Below the pieces are notes generated by a model, which did no database searches, was not told the origin of the DNA, and saw nothing but the letters and a program-made list of their open reading frames with translations. A stretch of 64,000 bases of DNA from Anaerolineae bacterium (GTDB lineage Bacteria; Chloroflexota; Anaerolineae; JAAYZQ01): NCBI GenBank assembly GCA_034428935.1, contig DAOUHB010000003.1, positions 974 to 64,973 of the forward strand, in the 5' to 3' direction. Both the position numbers and the translations under genes were made by a program. Positions 3,542 through 36,286 of this stretch are shown one piece after another (the first letter of the stretch is position 1; every line of letters starts with the position of its first letter).

Positions 3542-4753
3542 TCAGGCTCCTTCGTAGCGCCCGACGATGGTCACGCTGCTGATGTTCATGTGGGGCATGC
3601 CGCCCAGATTGTGGGTCAGGCCGTAGCGCAGATCCTGGCGCTGGCGCTGCCCGGCCCGGCCGTGAAACTGAAGATAGAGCTCATACAGCATGCGCAGCCC
3701 CGAGGCGCCGATGGGATGGCCGAAGCACTTGAGCCCGCCGTCGGGCTGGCAGGGCAAGGGGCCGTCGATGTTGAAAAACCCGTCGAGGATGTCGCGCACT
3801 GCTCCGCCCCGCTCCGAGATGTGCAGGTCCTCCATGGTCACCAGCTCGGTGATGGAGAAGCAGTCGTGCACCTCCATGAGGCTGATCTCGCGCCGCGGGT
3901 CGGTGATGCCGGCCTCCCGGTAGGCCACAGCGCTGCACTTGCTGGTGGTCAAGAAGTGGTCGCCCTCCCAGGCGTTGTAGCCCATCTCCTCGCCGCTGGA
4001 CAGGGCCAGTTGCAAGGCCTTCACCGCCACCGTGTCTGATTTGCCCAGCCCGCGGGCCACGTCGGGCGTGGTGACGATGGCGCACGCCGCCCCGTCGCTC
4101 ACGCCGCAGCAGTCGAACAGCCCCAGGGGATGGGCGACGATGGGCGCGGACATAACCTGGTCGATGGTCACCGCCTTGCGCAGGTGCGCCTTGGGGTTGA
4201 GGACGGCGTTGGCGTGGCTCTTGACCGACACCTGGGCCATGGCTCGCTTCAGATCCGTCTCGGCGATGCCGTGCCTGGCGGCATAGGCCGTGGCCAGTTG
4301 GGCAAAGGCACCCGGGGCGGTGATGTTGGGCATCCACTGCCAGCCGAGGGCGCCGGCCATGGAGCCCCAGTTGGGCAGCCCACCAAAGCCAATGTCCTTG
4401 AGCTTCTCGACCCCCATGGCCAGGGCAACGTCGTAGGCCCCCGAGGCCACGGCGTAACAGGCGCCGCGAAAGGCTTCCGTTCCCGTGGCGCAAAAGTTCT
4501 CTACCCGGGTGACCGGGATCAGGGGCAGCCGCAGCGTCAGCGATAGGGGCAGGGCGCTCTTGCCCACGTTCACCTCTTCCATGCAGCTCCCGAACCAGGC
4601 CGCCTGGATCTCTCCGCGGTCGATGCCCGCGTCCGCGATGGCTTCTTCAAAAGCCTCGACCATCAGTTCCTCGGCGCCGGACTCCCAGCGCTCGCCAAAG
4701 CGCGTGCAGCCCATGCCGACGATCACCACCTTGTCTCGGATTCCGGTAGCCAT
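3542..4753 (-). CDS. SCPx/nsLTP-type thiolase (acetyl-CoA C-acyltransferase-like)
   Basis: The real start is the ATG at 4751-4753 (MATGIRDKVVIVGMGCTRFGERWE). It has the nucleophile loop ENFCATGTEAF and the C-terminal GHPIGASGLRM. The upstream part of ORF 3542..5557 is Arg/Gly-rich non-coding-like read-through. Confidence 0.9.
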   Translation of the reverse strand: MATGIRDKVVIVGMGCTRFGERWESGAEELMVEAFEEAIADAGIDRGEIQAAWFGSCMEEVNVGKSALPLSLTLRLPLIPVTRVENFCATGTEAFRGACYAVASGAYDVALAMGVEKLKDIGFGGLPNWGSMAGALGWQWMPNITAPGAFAQLATAYAARHGIAETDLKRAMAQVSVKSHANAVLNPKAHLRKAVTIDQVMSAPIVAHPLGLFDCCGVSDGAACAIVTTPDVARGLGKSDTVAVKALQLALSSGEEMGYNAWEGDHFLTTSKCSAVAYREAGITDPRREISLMEVHDCFSITELVTMEDLHISERGGAVRDILDGFFNIDGPLPCQPDGGLKCFGHPIGASGLRMLYELYLQFHGRAGQRQRQDLRYGLTHNLGGMPHMNISSVTIVGRYEGA

Positions 4754-8353: not shown

Positions 8354-9478
8354 TCAGACGTGGGCTCCTCCAACGCCGGGGGCGGCCCGCAGCAGCTCTT
8401 GCGCCGCCCCATAGGGGTCCAGCTCCCGGGCCACGATGCGGTCCACCAGGGCCCGCAGCCCGTCCGCCCGGCTCGAGGCCAGCACCGTGCGCAGCGCCTC
8501 CTGCTGGATGATGGTCTCCAGCTCGGCGGCGGCCCGCTCCCGCTCCCGCCACTCGAGGCGGCCGGTCTCTTTCAGGTGGGCGCGGTGGGCCAGGATGGCC
8601 GACGCCAGCTCGGGAATGCCCTCGCGGCGGGTGGCTACCGTTTTCTGGATGGGCGGCCGCCAGCGCTCCTCGCCATCTTTGCCCGCGGGCGGGTGCGTTC
8701 CCTCCCTGCCGCTCCGCCGCTCCTTCCCGCCCTGGACCACCTCCATCAGCCGCCCGTGGTGCATGACACTTGCGGTCCCGGCGGTGTCCAGGTCGAGCAT
8801 CATCCGCAGCGCCATGACGGCGTGGTCGGCGCCCTCCTGGTCGGCCTTGTTCACGGCAAAGACGTCGGCGATCTCCAGGATACCGGCCTTGATGGCCTGC
8901 ACGTCGTCGCCCAGGCCGGGCACCTCGACTACCACCGTGGTGTGCGCCGTCCGGGCGATATCCACTTCGGCCTGGCCGGCGCCCACCGTCTCGACGATGA
9001 CCAGGTCAAAGCCGGCGGCGTCCAGCACTTTGACGGCGTCGGCCGTGGCCCAGGCCAGGCCGCCCAGGTTGCCGCGGCTGGCCATGCTGCGGATAAAGAT
9101 ACCGGGGTCGCCCGACAGGTCCCGCATGCGGATGCGGTCGCCCAGGATTGCCCCACCCGTGAAGGGGCTGGTGGGATCCACGGCGATGATGCCGACCGAG
9201 CGGCCCGCGGGCTCCCCTTCGTGTCTTAAGTGCAGGGCAAGGGCGTTCACCAACGTGCTCTTGCCGCTGCCCGGCGGCCCGGTGACGCCCACAATGTGCG
9301 CGCGCCCCGTATGGGGATGGAGGGCGGCGAGCATCGCGTGGGCTTCCGCGCCGCCTCCCTCCACCAGGCTGATGGCCCGCGCCACGGCACGGCGCTTGCC
9401 GGCCAGCACGCCTTCCACCAACTCGCTCAACTCCCGTTCTCCCCTCTCCGCCATGCCCGGCTCTCTTGAGTCCGTCAA
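8354..9478 (-). CDS. meaB: methylmalonyl-CoA mutase-associated G-protein chaperone MeaB/ArgK
   Basis: It has the P-loop [18 protein letters not shown] and the NKAD motif. The TTG start overlaps the upstream stop (TTGA at 9475-9478). Confidence 0.9.
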
Positions 9479-9882
9479 GCCACGTTCTCGCGGATAAAAT
9501 CTACGATGGCGTCGGTCGGAGTGCCCGGGCCAAAGACGCCGCGGATGCCCATCTTTTGCAGCCGCTCCACGTCCTCGTCGGGAATGATGCCGCCCGCGAC
9601 GACGAGGACATCTTCCATGTCGTTCTCTCGCAGCAGCTCCATCACTCGAGGGAACAGGGCCAGGTGCGCCCCCGACAGGATGGACATGCCCACCACGTCC
9701 ACGTCCTCCTGAATCGCCGCCTCGGCAATCATCTCCGGCGTCTGGCGGATGCCGGTGTAGACCACCTCCATGCCCGCGTCGCGCAGCGCCCGGGCGATCA
9801 CCTTTGCCCCCCGGTCGTGACCATCCAGCCCCGGCTTGGCAACCAAAACTCTTATCTTTTTGTCTGACACTACTACCTCCAT
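9475..9882 (-). CDS. cobalamin-binding small subunit/domain of a split methylmalonyl-CoA mutase-type isomerase
   Basis: The sequence [36 protein letters not shown] carries the DxHxxG B12-binding signature. At 135 aa it has no catalytic barrel. Confidence 0.9.
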
Positions 9883-9909
9883 GCTCGCGTTTGTTCAGGA
9901 AGTGCTACG

Positions 9910-10446
9910 CTAAATCGGTGCCATCACCATCCGGTCGCGGAGGCGCTTGACCATCAGCTCCTCTTCCCCCTGGATCCACTCTCCCAGGACCTCGCGCCAG
10001 ATGCGATGCAGTTCGGCAAAGGGCTTGGGCTCGTAGCCCTGCCCCTGGAGAAAGGTGCGCACCGTCCGGGGCGTCCAGGCGGGGAGCACCATGGCATTGG
10101 CCTCACACATCAGGACGCCTGCCTCGGCCTCGATAGCCTGCAAGAGCCTGCTGCCCGCCTCCTTCCGGTAGCGGGCTGGCGCCACGTGGAACAAGTCGGT
10201 GATGCACACCAGGTTTTCCACCTGCCAGGCGGCCACGCCCACCACGCCGCTGCCGCCGGTGGCCACCCACAGCCCCTTGCTAAAGAGCCATTCCATGGCC
10301 GTGGCCTCGTTCACGGCCAGGCGCGAGCGGCTCGACTTTTTCACGACCCGGACGATGGCTGCCAGGTCCTGGCGCCCTGCACGACGGACCTCGATGCTCT
10401 CGGCCCCCTCGATGCTCTCGGCCCCCTCGACCTCCTTGTCGCTCAC
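9910..10446 (-). CDS. GNAT-like acetyltransferase domain protein
   Basis: The protein is 178 aa with a GTG start after GAGGGGAG. The fold assignment rests on overall pattern only (weak). The N-terminus carries the duplicated hexapeptide EGAESIEGAESI. Confidence 0.5.
   Translation of the reverse strand: MSDKEVEGAESIEGAESIEVRRAGRQDLAAIVRVVKKSSRSRLAVNEATAMEWLFSKGLWVATGGSGVVGVAAWQVENLVCITDLFHVAPARYRKEAGSRLLQAIEAEAGVLMCEANAMVLPAWTPRTVRTFLQGQGYEPKPFAELHRIWREVLGEWIQGEEELMVKRLRDRMVMAPI
10390..10425. repeat. perfect 18-bp tandem duplication inside a CDS
   Basis: The unit ctcgatgctctcggcccc occurs twice (10390-10407 and 10408-10425) and encodes EGAESI twice on the minus strand. Confidence 0.9.
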
Positions 10447-26667: not shown

Positions 26668-27126
26668 TTAGTCGGGTTCAATACGGCGTTCCTGTTGATA
26701 CCGGGAAATTGCCTGGCGCAGTGTGTTCACGGCCAGTGCCGCGCAATGGGCATTCTCTTCTGGCAAGCCGTCCAGTGCCCGGACAAGATCCTCTGGATCT
26801 ATTTCGCTTGCCTCCTCCAGGGACATCCCCTTTACCATATTCGTCAGCATGTTGCCGCAGGCCAAGGATGAGCAACAGCCATCGGTCATAAAAGTGGCTT
26901 CCTGGATGGCGCTGCCACGCAGCCGAAGATAAATGGCCATCGTGTCGCCACACGATCCGGTTACGACAGCGTGCGCATCTGGAGCATCCATACAGCCCAG
27001 GTTTGTCGGATTGCGCGCCTGCTGGAGCACTGTGGCCGAGTAGAGCGCCTCTTCCTCCTGGTCTATCTCTCGTTGCAGGTCCGCAACCAATCGGTCCAAC
27101 TTGTCAGTTTCTTCTTGTTCAGTCAC
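26668..27126 (-). CDS. NifU/IscU-like Fe-S cluster scaffold protein
   Basis: The conserved Cys contexts GSCGDTM, DGCCSSLACG and AHCAALA are present. Confidence 0.85.
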   Translation of the reverse strand: MTEQEETDKLDRLVADLQREIDQEEEALYSATVLQQARNPTNLGCMDAPDAHAVVTGSCGDTMAIYLRLRGSAIQEATFMTDGCCSSLACGNMLTNMVKGMSLEEASEIDPEDLVRALDGLPEENAHCAALAVNTLRQAISRYQQERRIEPD

Positions 27127-27271: not shown

Positions 27272-28408
27272 TCATCGACGAGCGTGCATTTGCTTCTGAG
27301 CAAAGGCCGACGGCTGCGCCTGCGGCGTTCGTCTGATCAGTTCTTGAGCGATGGGCGCAAAAATCTCGCCCGTGTACTCTTCGATCCGCCCTGCGTCGCA
27401 CAATCGTGCGATCTCGGGGTCGATGGGCAGCCGGCCCAGGAAGGGCACGCCGATCCGTCGCGCCGTCTCTTCAGCGTGGCTTGGGCCAAAGAGCTCGTGG
27501 CGTTTGCCCGTGTCGGGACACTCGAAGTAGCTCATGTTCTCGATGAGCCCCAGAATGGGCGTTTCCATCTGCTGGGCCATGTTGGCCGCTTTGCGGACGA
27601 CCATTCCCGCCAGGCCCTGGGGCGAGCTGACCAGAACGATGCCCGACATGGGCAGCGACTGCATGACCGTCAGCGACGCATCCGACGTCCCGGGCGGTAG
27701 GTCCACGACGAGATAGTCCAGCGTCCCCCAGAAGATGTCGCCCCAGAACTGCTTGATGGCGTTGCTGACCAGCGGTCCGCGCCAGATGACGGCCATGTCC
27801 TCCTGCTCCAGCAGCAGGTTGATGGACATCACCCGGATGCCGGTCTTGCTCTGGGGCGGCATGGGGCCCAGGGGGCTCACGCCCAGCCGGGCCTCGCCGG
27901 GAAAGAACATCTTGGGGATGCTTGGGCCGGTGATATCGGCGTCCAGAATACCCACCCGGTGCCCTTCCCGGCGCAAGGCCATGGCCAACAGGCCGCTGAC
28001 CAGCGACTTGCCCACGCCACCCTTGCCACTCATGACGGCGATGACGTGCTTGATCTCGTTCAGGTGTTCGGCTGAACCTTTCTCGGGCTCGCCGATGCCC
28101 ATGCGACGTTTTTCCTCGTCCGTCATTTCGGTCAGCTCGACCGTTACCTCTTCGGCTCCCAGAGCGCCGACCGCTGCTTTCACATCGCCTACGATTTGGT
28201 CCTCGGAGGGACGGCCCCGTGCGGTCAGAGCCAGGGTGATGCCAACCTGGCCATTCCGTGTCTTTACCTCGCGGACCATGCCCAAGTCTATCAGGCTCCT
28301 ATGTAGCTCGGGGTCCATGACCCCTTCCAACGCCTTGCGAACCTCTTTTTCTGTAACCAACGCTTGTGCCTCCTCTGGCAAGATTTTAAGGCCTTTCTCC
28401 CTCGACAC
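27272..28408 (-). CDS. Mrp/NBP35/ApbC Fe-S carrier ATPase with an N-terminal DUF59 domain
   Basis: It has the deviant Walker A VMSGKGGVGKS and the DUF59 sequence VMDPELHRSLIDLGMV. An alternative start at TTG 28358-28360 has a better RBS (GAGGAGG, 8 nt spacing). Confidence 0.9.
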   Translation of the reverse strand: MSREKGLKILPEEAQALVTEKEVRKALEGVMDPELHRSLIDLGMVREVKTRNGQVGITLALTARGRPSEDQIVGDVKAAVGALGAEEVTVELTEMTDEEKRRMGIGEPEKGSAEHLNEIKHVIAVMSGKGGVGKSLVSGLLAMALRREGHRVGILDADITGPSIPKMFFPGEARLGVSPLGPMPPQSKTGIRVMSINLLLEQEDMAVIWRGPLVSNAIKQFWGDIFWGTLDYLVVDLPPGTSDASLTVMQSLPMSGIVLVSSPQGLAGMVVRKAANMAQQMETPILGLIENMSYFECPDTGKRHELFGPSHAEETARRIGVPFLGRLPIDPEIARLCDAGRIEEYTGEIFAPIAQELIRRTPQAQPSAFAQKQMHARR

Positions 28409-28740
28409 TCGCCGGGCTCACTGCTGTCCACTTTCGCATGGACCGCGTGCAGCACGTCACCTGACCTTGGTCTGGTCTGCTCCCATGCGCGAGTCGTGGG
28501 TGTCCAGAAAAGTGTACGGTGTCCGGCCAGGCAGGGAGACTGCTGTCCTCCGTTTGGCGCTACGAGCCGCGTGCCAGACCGGGAATTGTTCGGTCTCATC
28601 TAGAGACAGCCAGACTCTTATCTTCCTGGAAACGACAGGCTCACGCGGGCAGGCTTCCTGTTTCTGCCTCCCCTGCCGGCGATGGCGTCCATCAAGACTC
28701 GCTCTTCTGTTCTGCCTTCATCTATATGCGATGTGCACAT

Positions 28741-28769
28741 AGCATAGCACATCTTACTTCTGTTGTCAA
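28741..28769 (-). promoter_or_regulatory. minus-strand promoter candidate (TTGACA-17-TGc-TATGCT) facing mrp-nifU
   Basis: The reverse complement of 28764-28769 is TTGACA and that of 28741-28746 is TATGCT. The -10 is flanked by GCACAT hexamers (28735-40 and 28747-52). Confidence 0.5.
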
Positions 28770-28797
28770 GTATTCTGGACAGAATGGCAATTATCTA

Positions 28798-28826
28798 TTG
28801 ACAGCTAGCATCTAGCGTGTTATACT
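28798..28826 (+). promoter_or_regulatory. plus-strand promoter candidate (TTGACA-17-TGt-TATACT) facing the DUF1638 operon
   Basis: The hexamers and spacer were counted by hand. The spacer contains the palindrome gctagcatctagc (28804-28816). Confidence 0.55.
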
Positions 28827-28873
28827 GCAACTAACAAGGGAGCAAGCACATACATGTAGAGTGCCGATACTGG

Positions 28874-29179
28874 GTGGGGATCCGGCTCGAGAGCCCCATC
28901 AGCGACGGCTTTCGAGAGGGTAGTACGGCCGGTGAGGGCGTGTGCCCCGGACAGGAGCTTGTGCCAGGAGCAAGTCGACGATGGACCAGAGCTTCTCCGA
29001 CCATCGATCGCATCTCCAGGCCAACTCTGGGCACTCTCCTGGCCCTGTCTGCAGGGGCATTGGTTTACGTCGGTGCTTCTCACCTGCTGCCTGAGGTGGA
29101 GAAAGAAAACCGGCGCTTTATGATTTCACTGGCCGTTGGCGTGTTGGTGGCCCTGGCGATTGTAGCGGCCAAGGGGTGA
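28874..29179 (+). pseudogene. C-terminal remnant of a ZIP-family metal transporter (metal-ligand residues degenerate)
   Basis: The tail LLALSAGALVYVGASHLLPEVEKE...LAVGVLVALAIVAAKG is ZIP-like. The upstream SDGFREGS and CPGQELVPGA resemble the HxxxDGxAxG and HExPQELGD motifs but have lost their His residues. The N-terminal half of the protein is absent. Confidence 0.45.
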
Positions 29180-29276
29180 GTTGCTTTCGGCAACGGGTTG
29201 GCCGCGCTACAACAGGATTACGCGGGCCAGCGCGGCCCAAGACAAAGGGAAAGCAGAGGTTGGAAAGGTGACCGAG

Positions 29277-29957
29277 ATGATCCAATCCAGTTTTGCAGAT
29301 CGCTGCATCATATCCTGTGGTATGCTCCATCCAGAGCTAACCCACCTGGTACAGGCCGGCTTTCTGAACCCACGCCGGCTTCTGTTCACACCACCGGGCC
29401 TGCACGCTCTGCCCGAGAAGCTGGAAGAGCACCTGCTCGAAAGGCTGGCCCAAGCCCGCGAACTGTGCGCCGATCACGAGATCATTGTCGTGTATGGCAA
29501 AAAGTGCCACGTCAGCACTGACGAACCGCTCAAGCGGGTGGATACGATACTGGCGGAGGCAGGCCGGGGAATCGTCAGGGTCCAGGGCGAATATGGCTAT
29601 GATATGCTTGCTGGCCTCGAAGAACGACAGGAGATCAGCGGGGGGAGACAGGACAAGATCCTGTGGTTCACGCCCGCCTGGCTCAAGAGCTGGAAGACCA
29701 TCTTTCAGAAGTATTTCGCGTGGGATGAGGCGGATGCCAATGCCAACTTTCCCGGCTTCTACGACAAGATCATTGTCCTGGACAGCCTCGGCATTGCCGA
29801 CGAGTACATGGAACAGCACCCTGAGGATATTCTGGACCTGTTCGACTGGACGGGCCTGGAGGTCGAGTTCTGCCCAATTGCCCTCGACCGCTTCAGGCGC
29901 TTGCTTACCGAGGCTCTCTCCCCTGTCAAAGCCGGCATGGCAGTACGCAGTGCTTGA
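29277..29957 (+). CDS. DUF1638 domain protein
   Basis: The sequence is MIQSSFADRCIISCGMLHPELTHLV...LLFTPPGLHALPEKLEEHLLERL...WFTPAWLKSW. The family was recognised from memory of the DUF1638 pattern and has not been verified. Confidence 0.65.
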   Translation: MIQSSFADRCIISCGMLHPELTHLVQAGFLNPRRLLFTPPGLHALPEKLEEHLLERLAQARELCADHEIIVVYGKKCHVSTDEPLKRVDTILAEAGRGIVRVQGEYGYDMLAGLEERQEISGGRQDKILWFTPAWLKSWKTIFQKYFAWDEADANANFPGFYDKIIVLDSLGIADEYMEQHPEDILDLFDWTGLEVEFCPIALDRFRRLLTEALSPVKAGMAVRSA

Positions 29958-30043
29958 TGGTGGCGACCCGTTCCAGGTCTTGTCGGCACCGGGCAGGCGA
30001 CGGGGAGTGATAGATTAGGACAGTGGTTGGGAGGACAGAGACA

Positions 30044-30874
30044 ATGCGGCTAACCTGTGTAGTTGACAATGCCGTGGAGCGCAGTTCAGCATTGTGGGGC
30101 GAGCACGGCCTGGCCTTTTTGATAGAAGCGAATGGCAGGCGATTGCTGTTCGACATGGGCCAGAGTGGGACGTGCCTGCTGCATAACCTGGATCTGCTGG
30201 GTAAAAAGCCGGGAACGATCGATGCCCTGGCCATGAGTCACGCCCACTACGATCACAGCGGTGGCTTGCCGGCCCTGATGGAGCACCTGCAACGCGGCAT
30301 CTCGCTATATGCCAATCCGGACTTGTTCCGCGAGCGGTTCTCGCAGAAGCAGGGAAAGCTGCGCAGCACCGGCCTTTCTCTGAGCCGGGAGGCCTTGGCG
30401 GAACGACTGGCGTTGAGGCTGCATGCCTGGCCCCAGGAGATCCTGCCTGGTGTGTGGACGACGGGAGAGATATCGGAACGACCTGAGGCAGAGGGCAAGA
30501 GCGATTACCTCCTGATGCGCGAGGGGGAGGAACTCGTCGCCGATGCTTATCGTGATGATATGGCGCTCGTACTCGAGAGGGACGACAGACTCATGCTGCT
30601 CTGCGGTTGCTGTCACGCCAGATTGCTCAATACGCTAGCCCACGTCAACCGCATCTTTGAGATGCCCATCGCGGTCATCGCTGGTGGGCTGCACCTCACC
30701 GGTATTACGGGCGACGCCCTGCGGCGCACTGGCGAGTTGCTGGCGGCGATGCCGGCACTGGAGCGGGTATACCCGAACCACTGTACCGGCGAAGCGGCCT
30801 TTGTCACGCTGACCCAGATCTTGGGATCTTCTGTCGTGTGTCCCTGTCCGGCAGGGACCGTATTGGAGTTCTGA
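30044..30874 (+). CDS. MBL-fold metallo-hydrolase (COG1237-type)
   Basis: The N-terminus is MRLTCVVDNAVERSSALWGEHGLAFLIE and the metal motif is SHAHYDHSGGLPAL. The RBS is GGGAGGA. Confidence 0.85.
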   Translation: MRLTCVVDNAVERSSALWGEHGLAFLIEANGRRLLFDMGQSGTCLLHNLDLLGKKPGTIDALAMSHAHYDHSGGLPALMEHLQRGISLYANPDLFRERFSQKQGKLRSTGLSLSREALAERLALRLHAWPQEILPGVWTTGEISERPEAEGKSDYLLMREGEELVADAYRDDMALVLERDDRLMLLCGCCHARLLNTLAHVNRIFEMPIAVIAGGLHLTGITGDALRRTGELLAAMPALERVYPNHCTGEAAFVTLTQILGSSVVCPCPAGTVLEF

Positions 30875-30876
30875 AA

Positions 30877-31113
30877 TTGGCCGGGTTCGCCAACCGGGTG
30901 ATCGTCGGTTGGTTGAGGGACTGTAAAACAGCGTTGTTCGCCGAGAAATTGGTCAAGAACGCGCTCAACTCTGTCGGGGATGATCGGGTTCGGAAGCATT
31001 CCTATCAAGTTCTTGGAGGCAGGCCGGCGATTGCCCTCAATGCAGTAAACGACCTTGTCCCCGAGGATCTCCAACGGCGGCTACGTGAGGGGAGCACGCC
31101 GAAGGAGGACTGA
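30877..31113 (+). CDS. candidate small ORF (78 aa) between the MBL and radical SAM genes
   Basis: TTG 30877 lies 8 nt after GGAG. I recognise no family. Its codon composition resembles its neighbours. This is a weak call. Confidence 0.25.
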   Translation: MAGFANRVIVGWLRDCKTALFAEKLVKNALNSVGDDRVRKHSYQVLGGRPAIALNAVNDLVPEDLQRRLREGSTPKED

Positions 31114-31137
31114 CCAACAAATAAGGAGGCTGTGAGC

Positions 31138-32091
31138 ATGATCGCATTTGGACCGGTTCCTTCCAGGCGCTTGGGACAAAGCCTGGGCATCAACAACATT
31201 CCGCCCAAAATCTGCACCTATTCGTGTGTCTATTGCCAGGTGGGCCGAACTCTGCGGATGCACGTGGACCGTCGACCATTCTATGAGCCAGAGGAAGTCG
31301 CGAGTTCCGTGCGTGAGAAGGTCGCGAGAGCGAGAGAGGCTGGTGAACCCATCGACTACCTGACCTTCGTTCCCGATGGGGAGCCAACCTTGGACGTCAA
31401 CCTTGGGCGAGAGATCGAGCTTCTGAGACCGCTGGGTTTGCCCATCGCCGTCATTAGCAACGCCTCACTCATCTCGCGGGAGGACGTCCGCCGGGAGCTG
31501 ATGAGCGCGGACTGGGTGTCGCTGAAGGTGGATGCCGTTGATTCGGCCATCTGGCGACAGAACGACCGCCCCCATCGTAGCCTGCACCTATCCCCGATCC
31601 TGGAGGGCCTCCTTGCGTTTGCCGGGCATTTTGGCGGAGAGTTGGTGACAGAGACCATGCTCGTGGCCGGTGTCAACGATGGCCCACGACACTTGCGGGG
31701 GTTGGCCGCCTTTCTGGCACGCCTGCAGCCGGATCGCGCCTACCTGTCCATCCCGACTCGCCCGCCGGCCGAGCCGTGGGTGCAAGCGCCCGATGAGGAG
31801 GTCGTAAACCGCGCGTACCACATTCTCAGGGAAGAGGTGTCAAAGGTGGAATACCTCATCGGCTATGAAGGGAATGCCTTTGCCTTCACCGGCGACGTGG
31901 AGCAGGACCTGCTGAGTATCACCGCCGTTCATCCGATGCGCGAGGATGCCGTGAGCGATTACCTGGCCCGGGCCGGCGTGGGGTGGACAGCGGTGCAGCG
32001 GCTGGTGGCCGAGGGCCAGCTAGCCGCAGTCAAGTACCGCGAACACGCCTTCTACCTGAGAAAGCTACAAGCGCCTCGTCGAGGTGCATGA
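31138..32091 (+). CDS. radical SAM protein (COG0731 / Tyw1-related family, function unknown in bacteria)
   Basis: The sequence is MIAFGPVPSRRLGQSLGINNIPPKICTYSCVYCQVG, with the CX3CX2C motif. The RBS AAGGAGG lies 8 nt upstream. Confidence 0.85.
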   Translation: MIAFGPVPSRRLGQSLGINNIPPKICTYSCVYCQVGRTLRMHVDRRPFYEPEEVASSVREKVARAREAGEPIDYLTFVPDGEPTLDVNLGREIELLRPLGLPIAVISNASLISREDVRRELMSADWVSLKVDAVDSAIWRQNDRPHRSLHLSPILEGLLAFAGHFGGELVTETMLVAGVNDGPRHLRGLAAFLARLQPDRAYLSIPTRPPAEPWVQAPDEEVVNRAYHILREEVSKVEYLIGYEGNAFAFTGDVEQDLLSITAVHPMREDAVSDYLARAGVGWTAVQRLVAEGQLAAVKYREHAFYLRKLQAPRRGA

Positions 32092-32113
32092 GATCTTGCA
32101 GAAAGGAGAAAAG

Positions 32114-33025
32114 ATGGCAACGCGAATCCTGGTTCCGTTGGATGGGTCGCCCTTGGCCGAGCAGGCACTCGGCTGTGCCCACGCACTGGCACGGGGACTG
32201 CCGGCCGAACTGATTCTGTTCCGCGCCGTCTGGATCCCGCCTGACGTCCGGGAGCTGCTGAACGAGTCAACCGTGGAGTTGAACGCCATCCTGGCGCAGG
32301 CAAAGACGGAAGCGGATGAGTACCTGCGCGGGCTGAAGGAGCAACTGGGGAAGCTCGGCCTGGACGTTCGTTCTGTGGTGCGAGAGGGGCCGGCGGCGGA
32401 GGCTATCCTGGAGTATGCCACCCGGGAAAAAGTCGACCAGATCGTCATGGCCACCCATGGCTACAGCGGCTTCAAGCGTTGGACGCACGGCAGCGTGGCC
32501 GAGCGGGTGTTACAGGCAACCCAGGTGCCGCTCCTTCTCGTTCGGGCCGACGAGCGAGGCGTTGCGCAAAATTGGCAGCAGCCGGCACACTGCCGGCGAA
32601 TCCTGGCACCGTTGGACGGCTCTCCCACGGCAGAGCAGATCTTGCCAACCTTGACCCCTGTCGTCCGGGCCATGGGTGCCAACCTGACCCTTTTCCAGGT
32701 TCCCATCGCCTACAGCTCCGGAGCGATGACAGGCGAATTGTATCTCCCCCTTCAGGGGGTGCTTGAGACGGCGGAAGCGGAGTCGCGGGCGTATCTGGGT
32801 GCTGTTGCCGGCCGCCTGGCGGCGCAGGGGCTGGATGTGACCACGGCGACAGCCAACGGCTCCGTGGCGAACTGCATCATCGAGTACGCCGAGGCCAATC
32901 GGGTGGACTTGATCGCCATGTGCACCCATGGCCGGACAGGCCTGGCGCGATGGGCATTGGGCAGCGTCGCCGATCGGATCCTACGGGCGGGTAGTACCCC
33001 GATCTTGCTCGTGCGAGCCCGGTGA
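32114..33025 (+). CDS. tandem-domain universal stress protein (2 x UspA)
   Basis: MATRILVPLDGSPLAEQAL and RILAPLDGSPTAEQIL start the two repeats. Each repeat has the ATP motifs (ATHGYSGFKRWTHGSVAERV and CTHGRTGLARWALGSVADRI). Confidence 0.9.
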   Translation: MATRILVPLDGSPLAEQALGCAHALARGLPAELILFRAVWIPPDVRELLNESTVELNAILAQAKTEADEYLRGLKEQLGKLGLDVRSVVREGPAAEAILEYATREKVDQIVMATHGYSGFKRWTHGSVAERVLQATQVPLLLVRADERGVAQNWQQPAHCRRILAPLDGSPTAEQILPTLTPVVRAMGANLTLFQVPIAYSSGAMTGELYLPLQGVLETAEAESRAYLGAVAGRLAAQGLDVTTATANGSVANCIIEYAEANRVDLIAMCTHGRTGLARWALGSVADRILRAGSTPILLVRAR

Positions 33026-33263
33026 TGGTTCATGGATCGTAACAGGAGGTTTTGTTCCGCACTCGCGCCTTTTCCTTCGGGCGTGAGCGGGACGACGACC
33101 GGGCGGCTGCCGTCTGGCTTTACTTTCGTGCCTTCAACGCTTGCCGCGCCACGTGCCGGCGGTGGGCATGGTCATGCGAAAGCGAGAGGAGAAGATAGAG
33201 TTGATCCACTCTGCCGAGGAAGCAGAGATTCGTTCGCCGAACAGGGATCAGAAAGGGGAGAGA

Positions 33264-33719
33264 ATGGTCCGTACCAGAGGCCTGCGTGAGACACTGCATA
33301 CCAGCGGCCGCCGGCTCACCCGTCAACGCCGGCTGGTGCTCCGGGTGCTGGAAGAAAGCAGAGAGCACCTGGACGCCGAGAGGCTCTACGACCTGGCGAC
33401 ATCCTTGGATCCCAATATTAGCCTGGCGACGGTGTATCGCACCCTGGCCATTCTTAAAGAGATGGGACTGGTGGAGGAACACCGACTGGGTGAAGGGCAC
33501 GCCCACTTTGAGGCAACCCGAAGCACTCCTCATTATCACTTTACGTGCACTGCGTGCGGCCGCGTGATCGAGTTTGATGCACCGCAGGTTGCAGAGGTCG
33601 TTGAGCGCCTGAGCAAGCAGAGAGGACTACAGGTCACCGGTGCCCACTTTCTCGTCACGGGGCGGTGTACCCGCTGCCAGGACGAGGGGGAAGCAGTTCC
33701 GGAGAAGCCGCAGCCATAA
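33264..33719 (+). CDS. Fur-family metalloregulator (Fur/Zur/PerR type undetermined)
   Basis: It has GRRLTRQRRLVLRVLEES...SLATVYRTLAILKEMGLV, HHYHFTCTACGRVIEF and the C-terminal CTRC. Confidence 0.9.
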   Translation: MVRTRGLRETLHTSGRRLTRQRRLVLRVLEESREHLDAERLYDLATSLDPNISLATVYRTLAILKEMGLVEEHRLGEGHAHFEATRSTPHYHFTCTACGRVIEFDAPQVAEVVERLSKQRGLQVTGAHFLVTGRCTRCQDEGEAVPEKPQP

Positions 33720-33794
33720 CCCGAAAATAGGGCCGACAAAAGGACTCGGGTGGAGCCACCAATTTGCGGTCCAGGATATCGGGCAATAGAACAT

Positions 33795-33823
33795 TTGAGC
33801 GACCGCGTTTTTTGTGGTACAAT
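33795..33823 (+). promoter_or_regulatory. promoter (TTGAGC-17-TGg-TACAAT) predicting a leaderless helicase mRNA
   Basis: The -10 ends at 33823 and the ATG is at 33830. No RBS can fit in between. Confidence 0.5.
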
Positions 33824-33829
33824 GCGTGT

Positions 33830-36286
33830 ATGGACACGGCGACTTTTTTGAAGCAGCTTGCCAGCCTGCCCGGCTACAAGGGCCAGGTGGTGCATGTGGA
33901 GCACTTGCCGGCGCGCAAGGCACGCTACGGGCAACTGGAGCGGCCCTTGCCTGGGCCCCTCCAGGCCGCGCTCAAGCGTGTAGGCGCCGAGCGGCTGTAC
34001 AGCCACCAGGCCCAGGCCATCAACGCCGCTCGCCGCGGCCAGCACCTGATCCTGGCCACGGGCACGGCCAGCGGCAAGACGCTGGCCTACAACGTGCCGG
34101 TCCTGGAAGCCATCGTCGCCGACCGCAACGCCCGGGCCCTCTACCTCTTTCCCACCAAGGCGCTGGCCCAGGATCAGCTCCGCAGCCTGGCGGCCCTGAC
34201 CGAGGGCGACGTAAGGGGCATCCGCTTCGGCACCTACGACGGCGACACGCCCCAGGCGGCCCGCAGCCGCCTGCGGCGCGAGGTGAGCGTCCTGCTGACC
34301 AATCCCGACATGCTCCACGTCGGCATCCTGCCCAACCACAACCTGTGGGCCGGTTTTTTCGCCAACCTGCGCTTTGTGGTGATCGACGAGGCCCACGTCT
34401 ACCGCGGTGTCTTTGGCTCCCACGTGGCCAACGTCCTGCGGCGGCTGTGGCGCGTGTGCGCCCGTTACGGCGCCGCGCCGCAGATCATTGCCTGTTCGGC
34501 CACCATCGCCAATCCCGGCGAGCACCTGCACCGGCTGGCGGGCATCGAGCCAGTGGTCATTGACGACGACGGCGCGCCGGCCAGCGCCCGCGATTTCGTC
34601 CTGTGGAACCCGCCCTTTGTCGACGCGGCCCGGACGGCGCGGCGTAGCGCCAACATCGAGGCGGCGCGCCTCCTGGCGCAACTGGTGCAGGCCGGCGTGC
34701 GGACCATTGCTTTCAGCCGCGCCCGCCGCGTGGCCGAGCTGATCCTGCTCTATGCGAGGCGCATCCTCCAGGACCAGGCCCCCGCCCTGGCCGACCGCAT
34801 CCGGGCCTATCGGGCCGGCTACCGGCCCGAGCAGCGCCGCGAGATCGAGCACGGCCTGCGGGCGGGGGGCAACCTGCTGGGTGTCACGGCCACCTCTGCC
34901 CTGGAGCTGGGCATCGACATCGGCGACCTGGATGCGTCGCTCCTGGTGGGCTATCCGGGCACCATCGCCAGCCTGTGGCAGCAGGCCGGGCGGGCGGGCC
35001 GCGGCACGCGCCAGGCTTTGTCGCTGCTCATCGCCCAGGACAATCCCCTGGACCAGTACTTCATGCGGCATCCGCGGGACCTCTTTGGGCGGCCCCACGA
35101 GCACGCCCTCATTGACCCGTCGAACCCCTACGTGCTGGAACAGCACCTGCCCTGCGCTGCCCACGAGTCTCCCCTGTCGCGCGGTGCGGAGGAGGGCGAG
35201 GCGGCCCCTGTCTTCCAGGAGAGCTGGGGGGCGAGGGCCAGCCCGCGCCGGGCGCTGCCCGGCGGGCGCAGGGGAGGGCGTGCTGTCGCGTCGGGGACGC
35301 CGGCGCCGCGGACGGCGGGTGCCAGCCTGCCAACTGGCCTGGCAGCCGGCGACGACGAAGATCTGTTCGGCCCCGGCTTTGTGAGCGCCATGGTCACGCT
35401 GGAGGACAGCGGCCGGCTGATCTACCAGGGTGACCGCTGGTACGCCCGGGCCGGCTCCTATCCGGCGGAAGACGTCTCCCTGCGTGCCCTGGCCGGCTCG
35501 CGGGTGGCCCTGCTCAATGCCGCCGATGGGTTCCGCATCATGGAAGAGATCGAGGCCACCTCGGCCCTGTTTCGCGTCCATCCCGGGGCCGTCTACCTGC
35601 ACCAGGGCGAGTCGTTCGTGGTGCGCGAGCTGGACCTGGACATCGGGCACGCCATCCTGGAGCCGGCACAGGTCAACCACTACACCCAGCCCCGCGAGAT
35701 CAATGACGTGCGCATCGTCCGTTCGCTGGCACACAAGCAGTTCGACGGCGCCACGACCTATCTTGGCACGCTGCGGGTCACGCAGCAGGTCATCGGCTAC
35801 CGGCGCATCCAGCAGTTCCGCGAAGAGGTAATGAGCGTGGTGGACCTGGACCTGCCGTCGCAGACCTTTGAGACGGTGGGCGTGTGGTGGGACGTGCCCG
35901 AGGCCATCATCCAGCAGGTGCGGCGCAGGCGCCTGGACCTGGCGGGCGGGCTACACGCCATGGAGCACGCGGCCATCGGCCTGCTGCCTCTCTTTGCCAT
36001 GTGCGACCGCTGGGATATTGGCGGGCTGTCTACCCCCCGGCACCCCGACACCGAGGCGGCCCAGGTCTTTATCTACGACGCCTTTCCGGGCGGCGTCGGC
36101 ATCGCCGAGAAGGGGTTCGAGCTGGTCGCCGACCTGTGGCGGGCGACCCACGACGCCGTGCGAGACTGCCCCTGCGAGGATGGCTGCCCCAGTTGCATCC
36201 AGAGCCCAAAGTGCGGCTCGAACAACGAACCCCTGGACAAGCAGGCCGCCGTTCTGATCCTGGCCGAACTCCTCAAACGCTCGTAG
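33830..36286 (+). CDS. DEAD/DEAH-box helicase with a C-terminal DUF1998 zinc module (YprA/MrfA-like)
   Basis: It has the Walker A motif TGTASGKTL, the DEAH box (VIDEAHVYRG), the helicase-C motif QQAGRAGRG and the C-terminal CPCEDGCPSCIQSPKCGSNN. Confidence 0.9.
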   Translation: MDTATFLKQLASLPGYKGQVVHVEHLPARKARYGQLERPLPGPLQAALKRVGAERLYSHQAQAINAARRGQHLILATGTASGKTLAYNVPVLEAIVADRNARALYLFPTKALAQDQLRSLAALTEGDVRGIRFGTYDGDTPQAARSRLRREVSVLLTNPDMLHVGILPNHNLWAGFFANLRFVVIDEAHVYRGVFGSHVANVLRRLWRVCARYGAAPQIIACSATIANPGEHLHRLAGIEPVVIDDDGAPASARDFVLWNPPFVDAARTARRSANIEAARLLAQLVQAGVRTIAFSRARRVAELILLYARRILQDQAPALADRIRAYRAGYRPEQRREIEHGLRAGGNLLGVTATSALELGIDIGDLDASLLVGYPGTIASLWQQAGRAGRGTRQALSLLIAQDNPLDQYFMRHPRDLFGRPHEHALIDPSNPYVLEQHLPCAAHESPLSRGAEEGEAAPVFQESWGARASPRRALPGGRRGGRAVASGTPAPRTAGASLPTGLAAGDDEDLFGPGFVSAMVTLEDSGRLIYQGDRWYARAGSYPAEDVSLRALAGSRVALLNAADGFRIMEEIEATSALFRVHPGAVYLHQGESFVVRELDLDIGHAILEPAQVNHYTQPREINDVRIVRSLAHKQFDGATTYLGTLRVTQQVIGYRRIQQFREEVMSVVDLDLPSQTFETVGVWWDVPEAIIQQVRRRRLDLAGGLHAMEHAAIGLLPLFAMCDRWDIGGLSTPRHPDTEAAQVFIYDAFPGGVGIAEKGFELVADLWRATHDAVRDCPCEDGCPSCIQSPKCGSNNEPLDKQAAVLILAELLKRS

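Follow-up and report, generated by a model that had tools for sequence, protein, structure and literature searches.

A reduced Anaerolineae metal and iron-sulphur island points to an uncharacterised radical-SAM family associated with NifX-like and Mrp gene arrays in anaerobes

We analysed a 64-kb stretch of an Anaerolineae (Chloroflexota) genome, hereafter the window, and in particular a plus-strand gene string that encodes a DUF1638 protein, a COG1237-type protein of the metallo-beta-lactamase (MBL) fold, a radical S-adenosylmethionine (SAM) enzyme referred to below as rSAM, a tandem universal stress protein (2xUSP) and a Fur-family regulator, and that diverges from an mrp-nifU gene pair. The locus derives by deletion from a larger island. 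On a modest balance of the evidence, we favour the reading that it is the reduced core of a conserved Anaerolineae metal and iron-sulphur (Fe-S) island, in which rSAM and the MBL protein would be accessory to an Fe-S or metallocofactor trafficking neighbourhood specific to anaerobes. A preliminary description of this DNA had listed six co-directional open reading frames (ORFs) behind a promoter, and ORF listing together with Pfam and NCBIfam profile searches recovered all of its features close to where it had placed them. With gene starts refined from homologue lengths, the plus strand encodes DUF1638 at 29268–29957 (GTG start at 29268, 229 aa), MBL at 30044–30874 (276 aa), rSAM at 31138–32091 (317 aa), 2xUSP at 32114–33025 (303 aa) and Fur at 33264–33719 (151 aa), with intergenic gaps of 86 nt (DUF1638/MBL), 263 nt (MBL/rSAM, holding a gene remnant), 22 nt (rSAM/2xUSP) and 238 nt (2xUSP/fur). 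The shared direction of the six ORFs stands, but two of them are remnants of ZIP and DUF362 genes, so that the supposed six-gene operon is partly debris.

Related Anaerolineae carry fuller versions of the island (compared genomes are represented by loci labelled L001–L101). Behind the same promoter, their composite string reads padR, DUF364/DUF4213, CGGC, DUF5320, MFS, (DRTGG), ZIP, DUF1638, MBL, rSAM, 2xUSP, and at its 3' end (USP, methyltransferase, YkoF, OsmC), fur, ZIP. L008 encodes PadR, DUF4213/DUF364, CGGC, two small ORFs, DUF5320, MFS, DUF1638, a 130-aa ORF, rSAM, CBM48, 2xUSP and NifU, followed further on by FeoBA and Fur, with a second PadR between mrp and the promoter. L095–97 resemble L008, with YkoF, MBL, a 72-aa zinc-finger-like ORF, rSAM and an AIRS-family protein; L098/99 hold DUF364, CGGC, DUF5320, MFS, an ACS-like protein, DRTGG, ZIP, MBL, rSAM, 2xUSP, USP, methyltransferase, YkoF, OsmC, Fur and ZIP; and L100/101 continue from DRTGG into an intact ZIP gene (244 aa), DUF1638, MBL, a shortened DUF362 gene and rSAM. 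L006/7, L004/5 and L094 were examined as further versions. The order DUF1638-(x)-MBL-rSAM-2xUSP recurs in L094 and L095–97, and ZIP-DUF1638-MBL-(remnant)-rSAM recurs in L100/101. Because the DUF1638-MBL-rSAM trio is thus present in at least three other lineages, the objection that these genes might not co-occur outside this genome falls away, although what recurs is a lineage-specific assortment and not a fixed unit. The metal and Fe-S context proposed earlier is borne out by neighbours that include Mrp, NifU, NifX-like, DUF5320, CGGC, ZIP, FeoB and Fur proteins. As a separate observation, an encapsulin (Linocin_M18) gene adjoins mrp together with a small ferredoxin gene in L006 (1561–2854) and L007 (509–1922), and may provide an iron-storage nanocompartment within the island; the L007 locus adds a rubrerythrin-like ORF, and the equivalent 84-aa ORF of L006 has no Pfam match.

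At least four independent deletions shaped the window locus, at the PadR genes, ZIP, DUF362 and the surroundings of fur. What had been described as a decayed ZIP metal-transporter fragment is indeed decayed, and is more exactly an internally deleted, frameshifted pseudogene (28955–29179, plus strand; Pfam Zip 22 bits, under the cut-off). Its 5' piece (28955–28995) comprises the native ribosome-binding site, the ATG at 28981 and five codons, and matches L098 7153–7192 at 92% identity across 40 nt; about 178 codons are deleted. The 3' piece (28997–29179) holds the last 61 codons, 87% identical at the amino acid level to the intact 244-aa ZIP of L098 and L100 and 64% identical to the ZIP of L014 (E 1e-17). 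When the frames were checked the two pieces lay in different ones, which identifies the gene as an internally deleted pseudogene; of a complete multi-pass ZIP protein (~245–280 aa), only 5 N-terminal and 61 C-terminal codons are left.

The possible 78-aa ORF between MBL and rSAM (30877–31113, plus strand; no Pfam match) is the 3' remnant of a DUF362-family gene. It preserves the last 78 codons in a frame that is still open. Identity is 70.5% to residues 298–375 of the 375-aa DUF362 protein encoded directly upstream of rSAM in L001–3, and 60% to the C-terminal end of the 126-aa form, shortened by an internal deletion, in L100/101. Its differences from L100 at the first, second and third codon positions (0.269/0.205/0.449) show that constraint is relaxed relative to its neighbours. 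A GGAG lies 8 nt upstream of its TTG, and the remnant is possibly translated. We also considered whether it corresponds to the 72-aa zinc-finger-like ORF conserved in relatives, and rejected this as the two share no similarity. A conserved small ORF of ~72–105 aa with a CxxC...HxxxCxxC pattern and no Pfam or NCBIfam match is found in several Anaerolineae (L095 8762–8980, L094 ~3665–3835, L008 10139–10360, L001 4425–4616), directly upstream of rSAM or after DUF1638, and is absent from the window. In L100 (6614–6994) and in L101, an in-frame internal deletion joins residues 1–42 of the DUF362 protein to residues 282–375; over its last 78 codons the L100 gene retains 87% identity to the uninterrupted L001 protein and shows the pattern of purifying selection, and this conservation suggests a C-terminal module with a role of its own beside rSAM.

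Between 2xUSP and fur, homology to L098 breaks off at 33049 and is regained only at 33260, just 4 nt ahead of the ATG of fur. Where L098 has about 2.1 kb that carry USP, methyltransferase, YkoF and OsmC genes as well as the fur promoter, the window has 210 nt, and the ZIP gene found 3' of fur in relatives is also missing. Two adjacent, stable GC-rich hairpins lie at this junction (33052–33117, plus strand), with a terminator-like scan match at 33099–33117 and an RNA fold of −43.6 kcal/mol (z = −2.0 for a 110-nt stretch); they probably act as a transcript 3' end or stabiliser. A Fur-family gene therefore does lie last in the string, as had been described, but 238 nt and the two hairpins separate it from 2xUSP.

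Amid this decay of their neighbours, DUF1638, MBL, rSAM and 2xUSP have remained intact under purifying selection. In the intact genes, differences at first and second codon positions are far below those at third positions, for example 0.089/0.076/0.333 for DUF1638 and 0.106/0.071/0.287 for MBL, both relative to L100. A history of deletions raises the alternative that there is no functional unit here, adjacency and the shared promoter being by-products of deletions in a variable island and the four genes working independently, such as 2xUSP in general stress and DUF1638 with the transporter encoded upstream of it. The four or more independent deletions would fit such an account, as would the gene content between the same anchors, which varies in every relative examined, the position of DUF1638 behind a transporter gene (MFS or ZIP) in relatives, and the finding that MBL lies directly upstream of rSAM in only 5 of the 80 loci surveyed below. 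We nevertheless consider it unlikely, since several lineages retain the order DUF1638, MBL, rSAM, 2xUSP with 72–86% identity, the four genes stayed under purifying selection while those around them decayed, and MBL and rSAM share arrays in ~30% of the surveyed loci, in different phyla.

The rSAM protein carries the motif FGPVPSRRLGxSLGINNIP in its N-terminal part, one CxxxCxxC (C26, C30, C33) and, at the C-terminal end, a small alpha/beta domain, and scores 48.5 bits against Pfam Radical_SAM; no NCBIfam equivalog matches it. The three cysteines are conserved in an alignment of 32 diverse family members, in which no other Cys column is conserved and 25 residues precede the motif. At E ≤ 1e-30 the family comprises 819 representative clusters; species-representative genomes of anaerobic bacteria and archaea contribute at least 592 loci. 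The term 'Tyw1-related' that had been applied to the enzyme holds only as far as its COG0731 label. Like TYW1/Taw1, rSAM has the CxxxCxxC core, and it gives weak matches to 6djt and 2z2u (E ~2–3e-3), but it lacks the three further N-terminal cysteines of the auxiliary [4Fe-4S] cluster as well as a Pfam Wyosine_form domain, and TYW1 appears only at Foldseek ranks 34 and 39. Searched against PDB, the family profile returned weak generic matches (viperin-like, QueE, RlmN, TYW1; E 1e-4 to 3e-3), and the AlphaFold model (pLDDT 68.5) retrieved PflA activase, RlmN-like, NifB, DesII and viperin structures at TM ~0.45, which fit it as well as or better than TYW1. Membership of TYW1 was rejected on the basis of the single cluster motif and the better PDB profile matches of viperin-like proteins and QueE. 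COG0731 was not mentioned in the literature found by our search, which gave nothing useful for DUF5320 either. One family member (P0366) is an rSAM-TrmO_N fusion that may be a gene-call artefact and was not used as a functional hint. Directly 3' of rSAM, L001 carries a second radical-SAM gene (8972–10027) of the AmmeMemoRadiSam system (TIGR04337, 378 bits, above the cut-off), and members of the same similarity cluster (cluster 33) occur in five of the L012–L091 loci.

Gene neighbourhoods were surveyed for the 80 best-scoring of the at least 592 rSAM loci. Briefly, all ORFs were clustered, clusters were labelled by similarity and Pfam, and a family was counted when it lay within 10 kb of rSAM; the counts are raw, without a random-locus baseline. 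The 80 loci came from Anaerolineae, Thermoflexus, Desulfobacterales, Syntrophales, Thermotogae, Bacteroidales, Bathyarchaeia, Thermococci, Methanothrix and Thermoplasmata. A Mrp/MinD-type ATPase and/or a NifX-like (Nitro_FeMo-Co) protein was encoded at 50 of them, mostly upstream of rSAM and co-directional with it, and rSAM was often the final gene of arrays such as DUF134, DUF5320, NifX, Mrp, NifU, rSAM. COG1237-type MBL genes were present at 24–26 loci (~30%), class I SAM methyltransferases at 19–21, DUF5320 at about 19–24, NifU at 14, DUF134 at 12 and DUF89 at 9. Less frequent were ABC-TOBE ATPases (8 loci), ZIP (7–8), FeoB, the ArsP_2 permease, TrmO_N as separate genes and CGGC (7 each), 2xUSP (6–7), and Fur and PadR (6 each). 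DUF1638 was found at none of the 80. An arsenic or organo-metalloid reading, raised because some arrays include methyltransferases and ArsP_1/ArsP_2 permeases, was set aside as remote, with no ArsS or ArsM model match.

The only studied relative of this neighbourhood is the ORP/MrpORP system, which it resembles in its components without being a member of it. In Desulfovibrio vulgaris, MrpORP, a Mrp/NBP35 protein that includes a NifX-like domain, has been shown to bind Fe-S clusters and to transfer them to partners (PMC6345978). The system is anaerobe-specific and co-encodes Mrp-type P-loop ATPases with NifX-like 'Di-Nase' proteins, often in divergent operons; no radical-SAM enzyme is mentioned in the text of that paper (PMC6345978). 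The likeness to the rSAM family lies in the Mrp/NifX-like arrays at 50 of the 80 loci. In the window itself, by contrast, the N-terminal part of Mrp is a DUF59 domain, a Di-Nase (Nitro_FeMo-Co) domain is missing, the protein scores 316 bits against NF041136, whose cut-off is 450, and there is no NifX-like gene. The orp operons of Desulfovibrio are under sigma-54 control, whereas the window promoters are of the sigma-70 type and have PadR neighbours in relatives. A second comparison is with NifB, since an analogous set of components is encoded together (a radical-SAM enzyme, NifX-like carriers, NifH/MinD-like ATPases and a NifU scaffold) and NifB structures rank near the top of the fold matches of rSAM (E 6e-7, TM ~0.45). 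However, rSAM has neither the K-cluster Cys/His ligands nor a fused NifX-like domain, and the resemblance does not go beyond what radical-SAM enzymes share in general. Membership of NifB was thus rejected, there being no extra conserved ligands and no Nitro_FeMo-Co domain; the lineages that host the family also appear to be mostly non-diazotrophic contexts.

The COG1237-type label given earlier to the MBL protein is well founded. The HxHxDH motif is intact (H73-A-H75-Y-D77-H78 in the ORF), Pfam Lactamase_B scores 36 bits, and the PDB matches are 2p4z (E 2.8e-24, residues 12–268), TM1679 (3h3e, E 8e-17) and 7dck; its homologues, of 276 aa, are named COG1237/K06897 by JGI. Although it resembles the COG1237/K06897 proteins 2p4z and TM1679 along its full length, the window protein is encoded in Fe-S/metal arrays with rSAM, as at 24–26 of the 80 loci, and not in the context of a methanopterin pathway; no methanopterin genes were seen near MBL in the window string or in the related loci examined. 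The archaeal COG1237 protein MJ0301 is annotated as dihydropterin-methyl-RFAP synthase, an enzyme of methanopterin synthesis. A pterin-like role of the window protein would rest only on transfer of the COG1237 name (EC 2.5.1.105, an archaeal enzyme). The statement that the central enzymes have no assigned function in bacteria holds for rSAM and MBL, which no profile assigns to a characterised bacterial pathway, but not wholly for DUF1638, for which B12-related genetics have been published.

The identity of the DUF1638 protein was confirmed by a full-length match to PF07796 (profile positions 1–161 of 161; 69 bits against a cut-off of 27). It has four invariant cysteines at positions 10, 14, 64 and 77, numbered from the Met at 29277, and is 74–86% identical to hundreds of Anaerolineae proteins of 225–229 aa. 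Its AlphaFold model (pLDDT 77.8) had no PDB fold match at E ≤ 1e-3, and a PDB sequence search was empty; a faint likeness to the PrpR N-domain, nitrogenase/DPOR subunits and SirB (two-lobed alpha/beta) was not used as evidence. It joins rSAM only in close Anaerolineae relatives (L001–3, L008/9, L092–97, L100/101). In other bacteria, methionine synthesis that relies on a split B12-dependent MetH requires DUF1638, which links the protein to reactivation of that enzyme, and in alpha-proteobacteria DUF1638 is found together with a RamA-like activator (PMC5764234); it is also induced with corrinoid methyltransferases (PMC12478193). The window protein shares the full-length PF07796 domain with the proteins concerned, Phaeobacter inhibens PGA1_c13340 and Ruegeria pomeroyi SPO2162 (PMC5764234, PMC12478193), but differs in having no corrinoid-protein or RamA-like neighbour and in belonging to a tight Anaerolineae subfamily (74–86%) that follows a transporter gene in a metal island.

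These genetic data raise the alternative of a corrinoid (B12) module, in which DUF1638 would reactivate or handle a corrinoid while rSAM and MBL, joined in relatives by methyltransferases and a HisC/CobD-like aminotransferase, would act on corrinoids or their precursors. Also consistent with such a module are the HisC/CobD-like scores of the aminotransferase in L001 and L092, a methyltransferase that is weakly CpaM-like, and methylmalonyl-CoA mutase genes near DUF1638 on the other strand in L010/11, two of them in L010. All of the NCBIfam matches cited here are, however, under their cut-offs. Moreover, neither corrinoid-binding nor RamA-like nor cobalamin genes occur in the window string or its conserved relatives, and no corrinoid protein or RamA-like activator was found in the DUF1638-bearing loci L001–3, L008/9, L092–97 and L100/101; the association of DUF1638 with rSAM is absent from the 80 diverse loci, and the DUF1638 model has no significant structural match. 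We keep a corrinoid module as a minor and very unlikely alternative.

The control region is conserved as two back-to-back sigma-70-type promoters. The rightward one, at 28798–28826 on the plus strand (TTGACA-17-TATACT with an extended −10 TG, 11/12 matches), precedes the string, as the preliminary description had noted, and is kept in related loci; the leftward one, at 28741–28769 on the minus strand (TTGACA-17-TATGCT with TG, 10/12 matches), would serve mrp-nifU, whose divergence from a shared control region is thereby confirmed. Promoter-like sites in the 7.7-kb region numbered 6, compared to 1.7 ± 1.4 in shuffles. In a five-locus alignment (window, L004, L006, L007 and L008), CTATTGACA and TAGnGTGnTATACT are invariant and the hexamers of the minus promoter are kept; in the four other Anaerolineae loci the promoter block sits between mrp and the rightward genes, and window positions 28763–28826 are 81% identical to the start of L098. 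A repeat search identified a 22-bp palindrome, TATGCGATGTGCACATAGCATA, at 28725–28746 (92% complementary), over the −10 and start of the minus promoter. It is the window copy of an inverted repeat, TATGTGC-N5-GCACATA, that is kept in L004, L006, L007 and L008, and we regard it as a candidate PadR operator.

In relatives, two PadR genes flank the promoter pair. The plus-side PadR gene and those from DUF364 through DRTGG are gone from the window, and the minus-side regulator is left as a pseudogene (28472–28693, minus strand) recognised from three collinear tblastn pieces that match the PadR of L008 and L095, with in-frame stops and an internal loss of ~130 nt; a 40-nt blastn alignment with the 3' end of the PadR gene of L008 shows 85% identity. 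At the same position, between mrp and the promoter, relatives carry an intact 130-aa PadR. A long 5' leader of mrp, suggested by the 330 nt between mrp and the promoter, was rejected given that this stretch holds the pseudogene, and an Rfam scan of 26.0–34.5 kb for a leader or riboswitch gave no match. As both PadR genes are removed or broken, the surviving genes are probably expressed without ancestral PadR control.

Divergent from the string, the minus strand encodes a Mrp/ApbC-type Fe-S carrier ATPase with DUF59 and P-loop domains (longest ORF 27272–28408, the true start probably lying ~13 codons inside it; Pfam ParA/NUBPL 300 bits, FeS_assembly_P 59 bits) and, as the second gene of the unit, a NifU/IscU-like Fe-S scaffold (26668–27126; Pfam NifU_N 104 bits; NCBIfam NifU_clost 103 bits, under its cut-off). 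Mrp is 82–85% identical to Mrp of L004–L008, and NifU is 53% identical to the Mrp-adjacent NifU of L004 and L008.

The preliminary description had counted the Fur-family protein, as metalloregulator, among its signs of a metal-responsive module. The protein is a member of the FUR domain family (PF01475, 114 bits) with both CxxC pairs present (CTAC and CTRC); its best subclass scores are NCBIfam Fur-Bacillus at 88 bits and PerR at 83 bits, with all equivalogs under their cut-offs. It is 78–84% identical to Fur of L004 and L098, where the gene is followed by an intact ZIP gene. Just past the −10 of fur in L004/5, L008 and L098/99, we found a palindromic box, TTGCAAAT-N7-ATTCGCA and variants (L004 13781–13803, L098 13075–13097, and L008 17821–17843 in reverse-complement coordinates), which within these loci occurs only upstream of fur and is likely a Fur autoregulatory operator in the relatives. 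Exact and degenerate searches found the box neither in the window control region nor upstream of the window fur; a match with 3 mismatches inside the rSAM coding sequence was taken as chance. As judged from its sequence, the window fur is without its own promoter, operator and ZIP partner. Because the operator is absent from the control region, Fur control of the string is without sequence evidence, and the promoter of relatives is flanked by PadR genes instead.

These results bear on the proposal that the locus is a Fur-controlled, metal-responsive operon of six genes that carries out a new chemistry, of cofactor or pterin-like type, and shares one control region and its regulation with mrp-nifU. 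In its favour, a ZIP relic begins the string and a Fur-family gene ends it, mrp-nifU diverges from the same intergenic region, fur-ZIP and FeoAB-fur pairs lie nearby in relatives, and MBL bears the transferred, pterin-related K06897 name. With the relatives' operator confined to the upstream region of fur and missing from the window control region, a window fur that has lost promoter and operator, PadR genes at the promoter in relatives, two of six ORFs reduced to debris and a pterin name that derives from annotation transfer, we consider this proposal very unlikely.

The metal/Fe-S reading favoured here has its own difficulties. The functional link is one of guilt by association, drawn from the best-scoring 80 of at least 592 loci, and the window has no NifX-like, DUF5320, CGGC or DUF364 gene within its 64 kb, so that rSAM must work here without most of its usual neighbours. 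The AlphaFold model of rSAM is only moderate and does not resolve the cluster-binding N-terminus, and the lack of conserved extra cysteines disfavours a cluster fusion chemistry like that of NifB. DUF1638 is never beside rSAM outside Anaerolineae (0/80 loci), and its sole genetic link is to corrinoid reactivation (PMC5764234).

Under the metal/Fe-S reading, the back-to-back sigma-70 promoters would direct mrp-nifU leftward and, rightward, a transcript comprising the ZIP pseudogene, DUF1638, MBL, the DUF362 remnant, rSAM and the tandem USP, running from ~28833 through the pseudogene debris to the hairpins at 33052–33117. The deletions that removed or broke the PadR genes, ZIP, DUF362, the fur promoter and operator and the fur-downstream ZIP gene would have abolished ancestral PadR repression and left Fur as an orphaned neighbour and not a switch. 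By analogy with its superfamily, rSAM would hold one [4Fe-4S]/SAM site and direct a 5'-deoxyadenosyl radical at its substrate. Because it typically ends arrays of DUF134, DUF5320, NifX-like, Mrp/MinD and NifU genes, it would most likely mature, modify or repair an Fe-S-type metallocofactor or its carrier; MBL, with a putative binuclear metal site, would be its frequent helper, and DUF1638 and USP would be additions of the Anaerolineae lineage.

Outside the string, the flanks are housekeeping genes unrelated to it. On the left these encode an inositol monophosphatase and an LPG-synthase-like protein; to the right lie genes for a MrfA-like helicase, a VTT-domain protein and an ABC transporter. 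The helicase gene (33764–36286, plus strand; DEAD, Helicase_C, HRQ1 winged helix and MZB zinc-binding domains) starts 45 nt past fur and sits where relatives carry the ZIP gene. Within the string, both Usp domains of 2xUSP claimed earlier were confirmed by Pfam (164 bits), and the protein is 70–79% identical to the 2xUSP encoded 3' of rSAM in L008 and L098. GC content is ~66% for the window, with 0.63–0.71 in most of it and 0.58–0.61 over 28001–32000, a low-GC stretch that spans the control region, DUF1638, MBL and part of rSAM.

Having lost regulators and transporters, the remnant is a poor model for regulation of the island; with DUF1638, MBL, rSAM and USP intact amid decay, it is informative about which genes are indispensable. 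Its value is as a pointer, from what is itself an eroded copy, to an uncharacterised rSAM family linked to NifX-like/Mrp arrays across anaerobes. Such arrays are widespread in anaerobes, and the function demonstrated so far is Fe-S binding and transfer by MrpORP (PMC6345978). We tentatively put forward, as a possibility well short of probable, that the FGPVPSRRLG rSAM is the missing catalytic part of 'ORP-type' arrays (the anaerobe-specific NifX-like, Mrp-MinD, DUF5320 and DUF134 gene arrays), with MBL as a common second enzyme and DUF1638 as an Anaerolineae helper in a nitrogenase-independent radical-SAM pathway for a metallocofactor or its carrier. An rSAM enzyme at the end of the array offers a concrete catalytic handle, whose substrate could reveal the cargo of the carriers; if the proposal is true, hundreds of anaerobic bacterial and archaeal species would share a radical-SAM pathway that builds, modifies or repairs such a cofactor.

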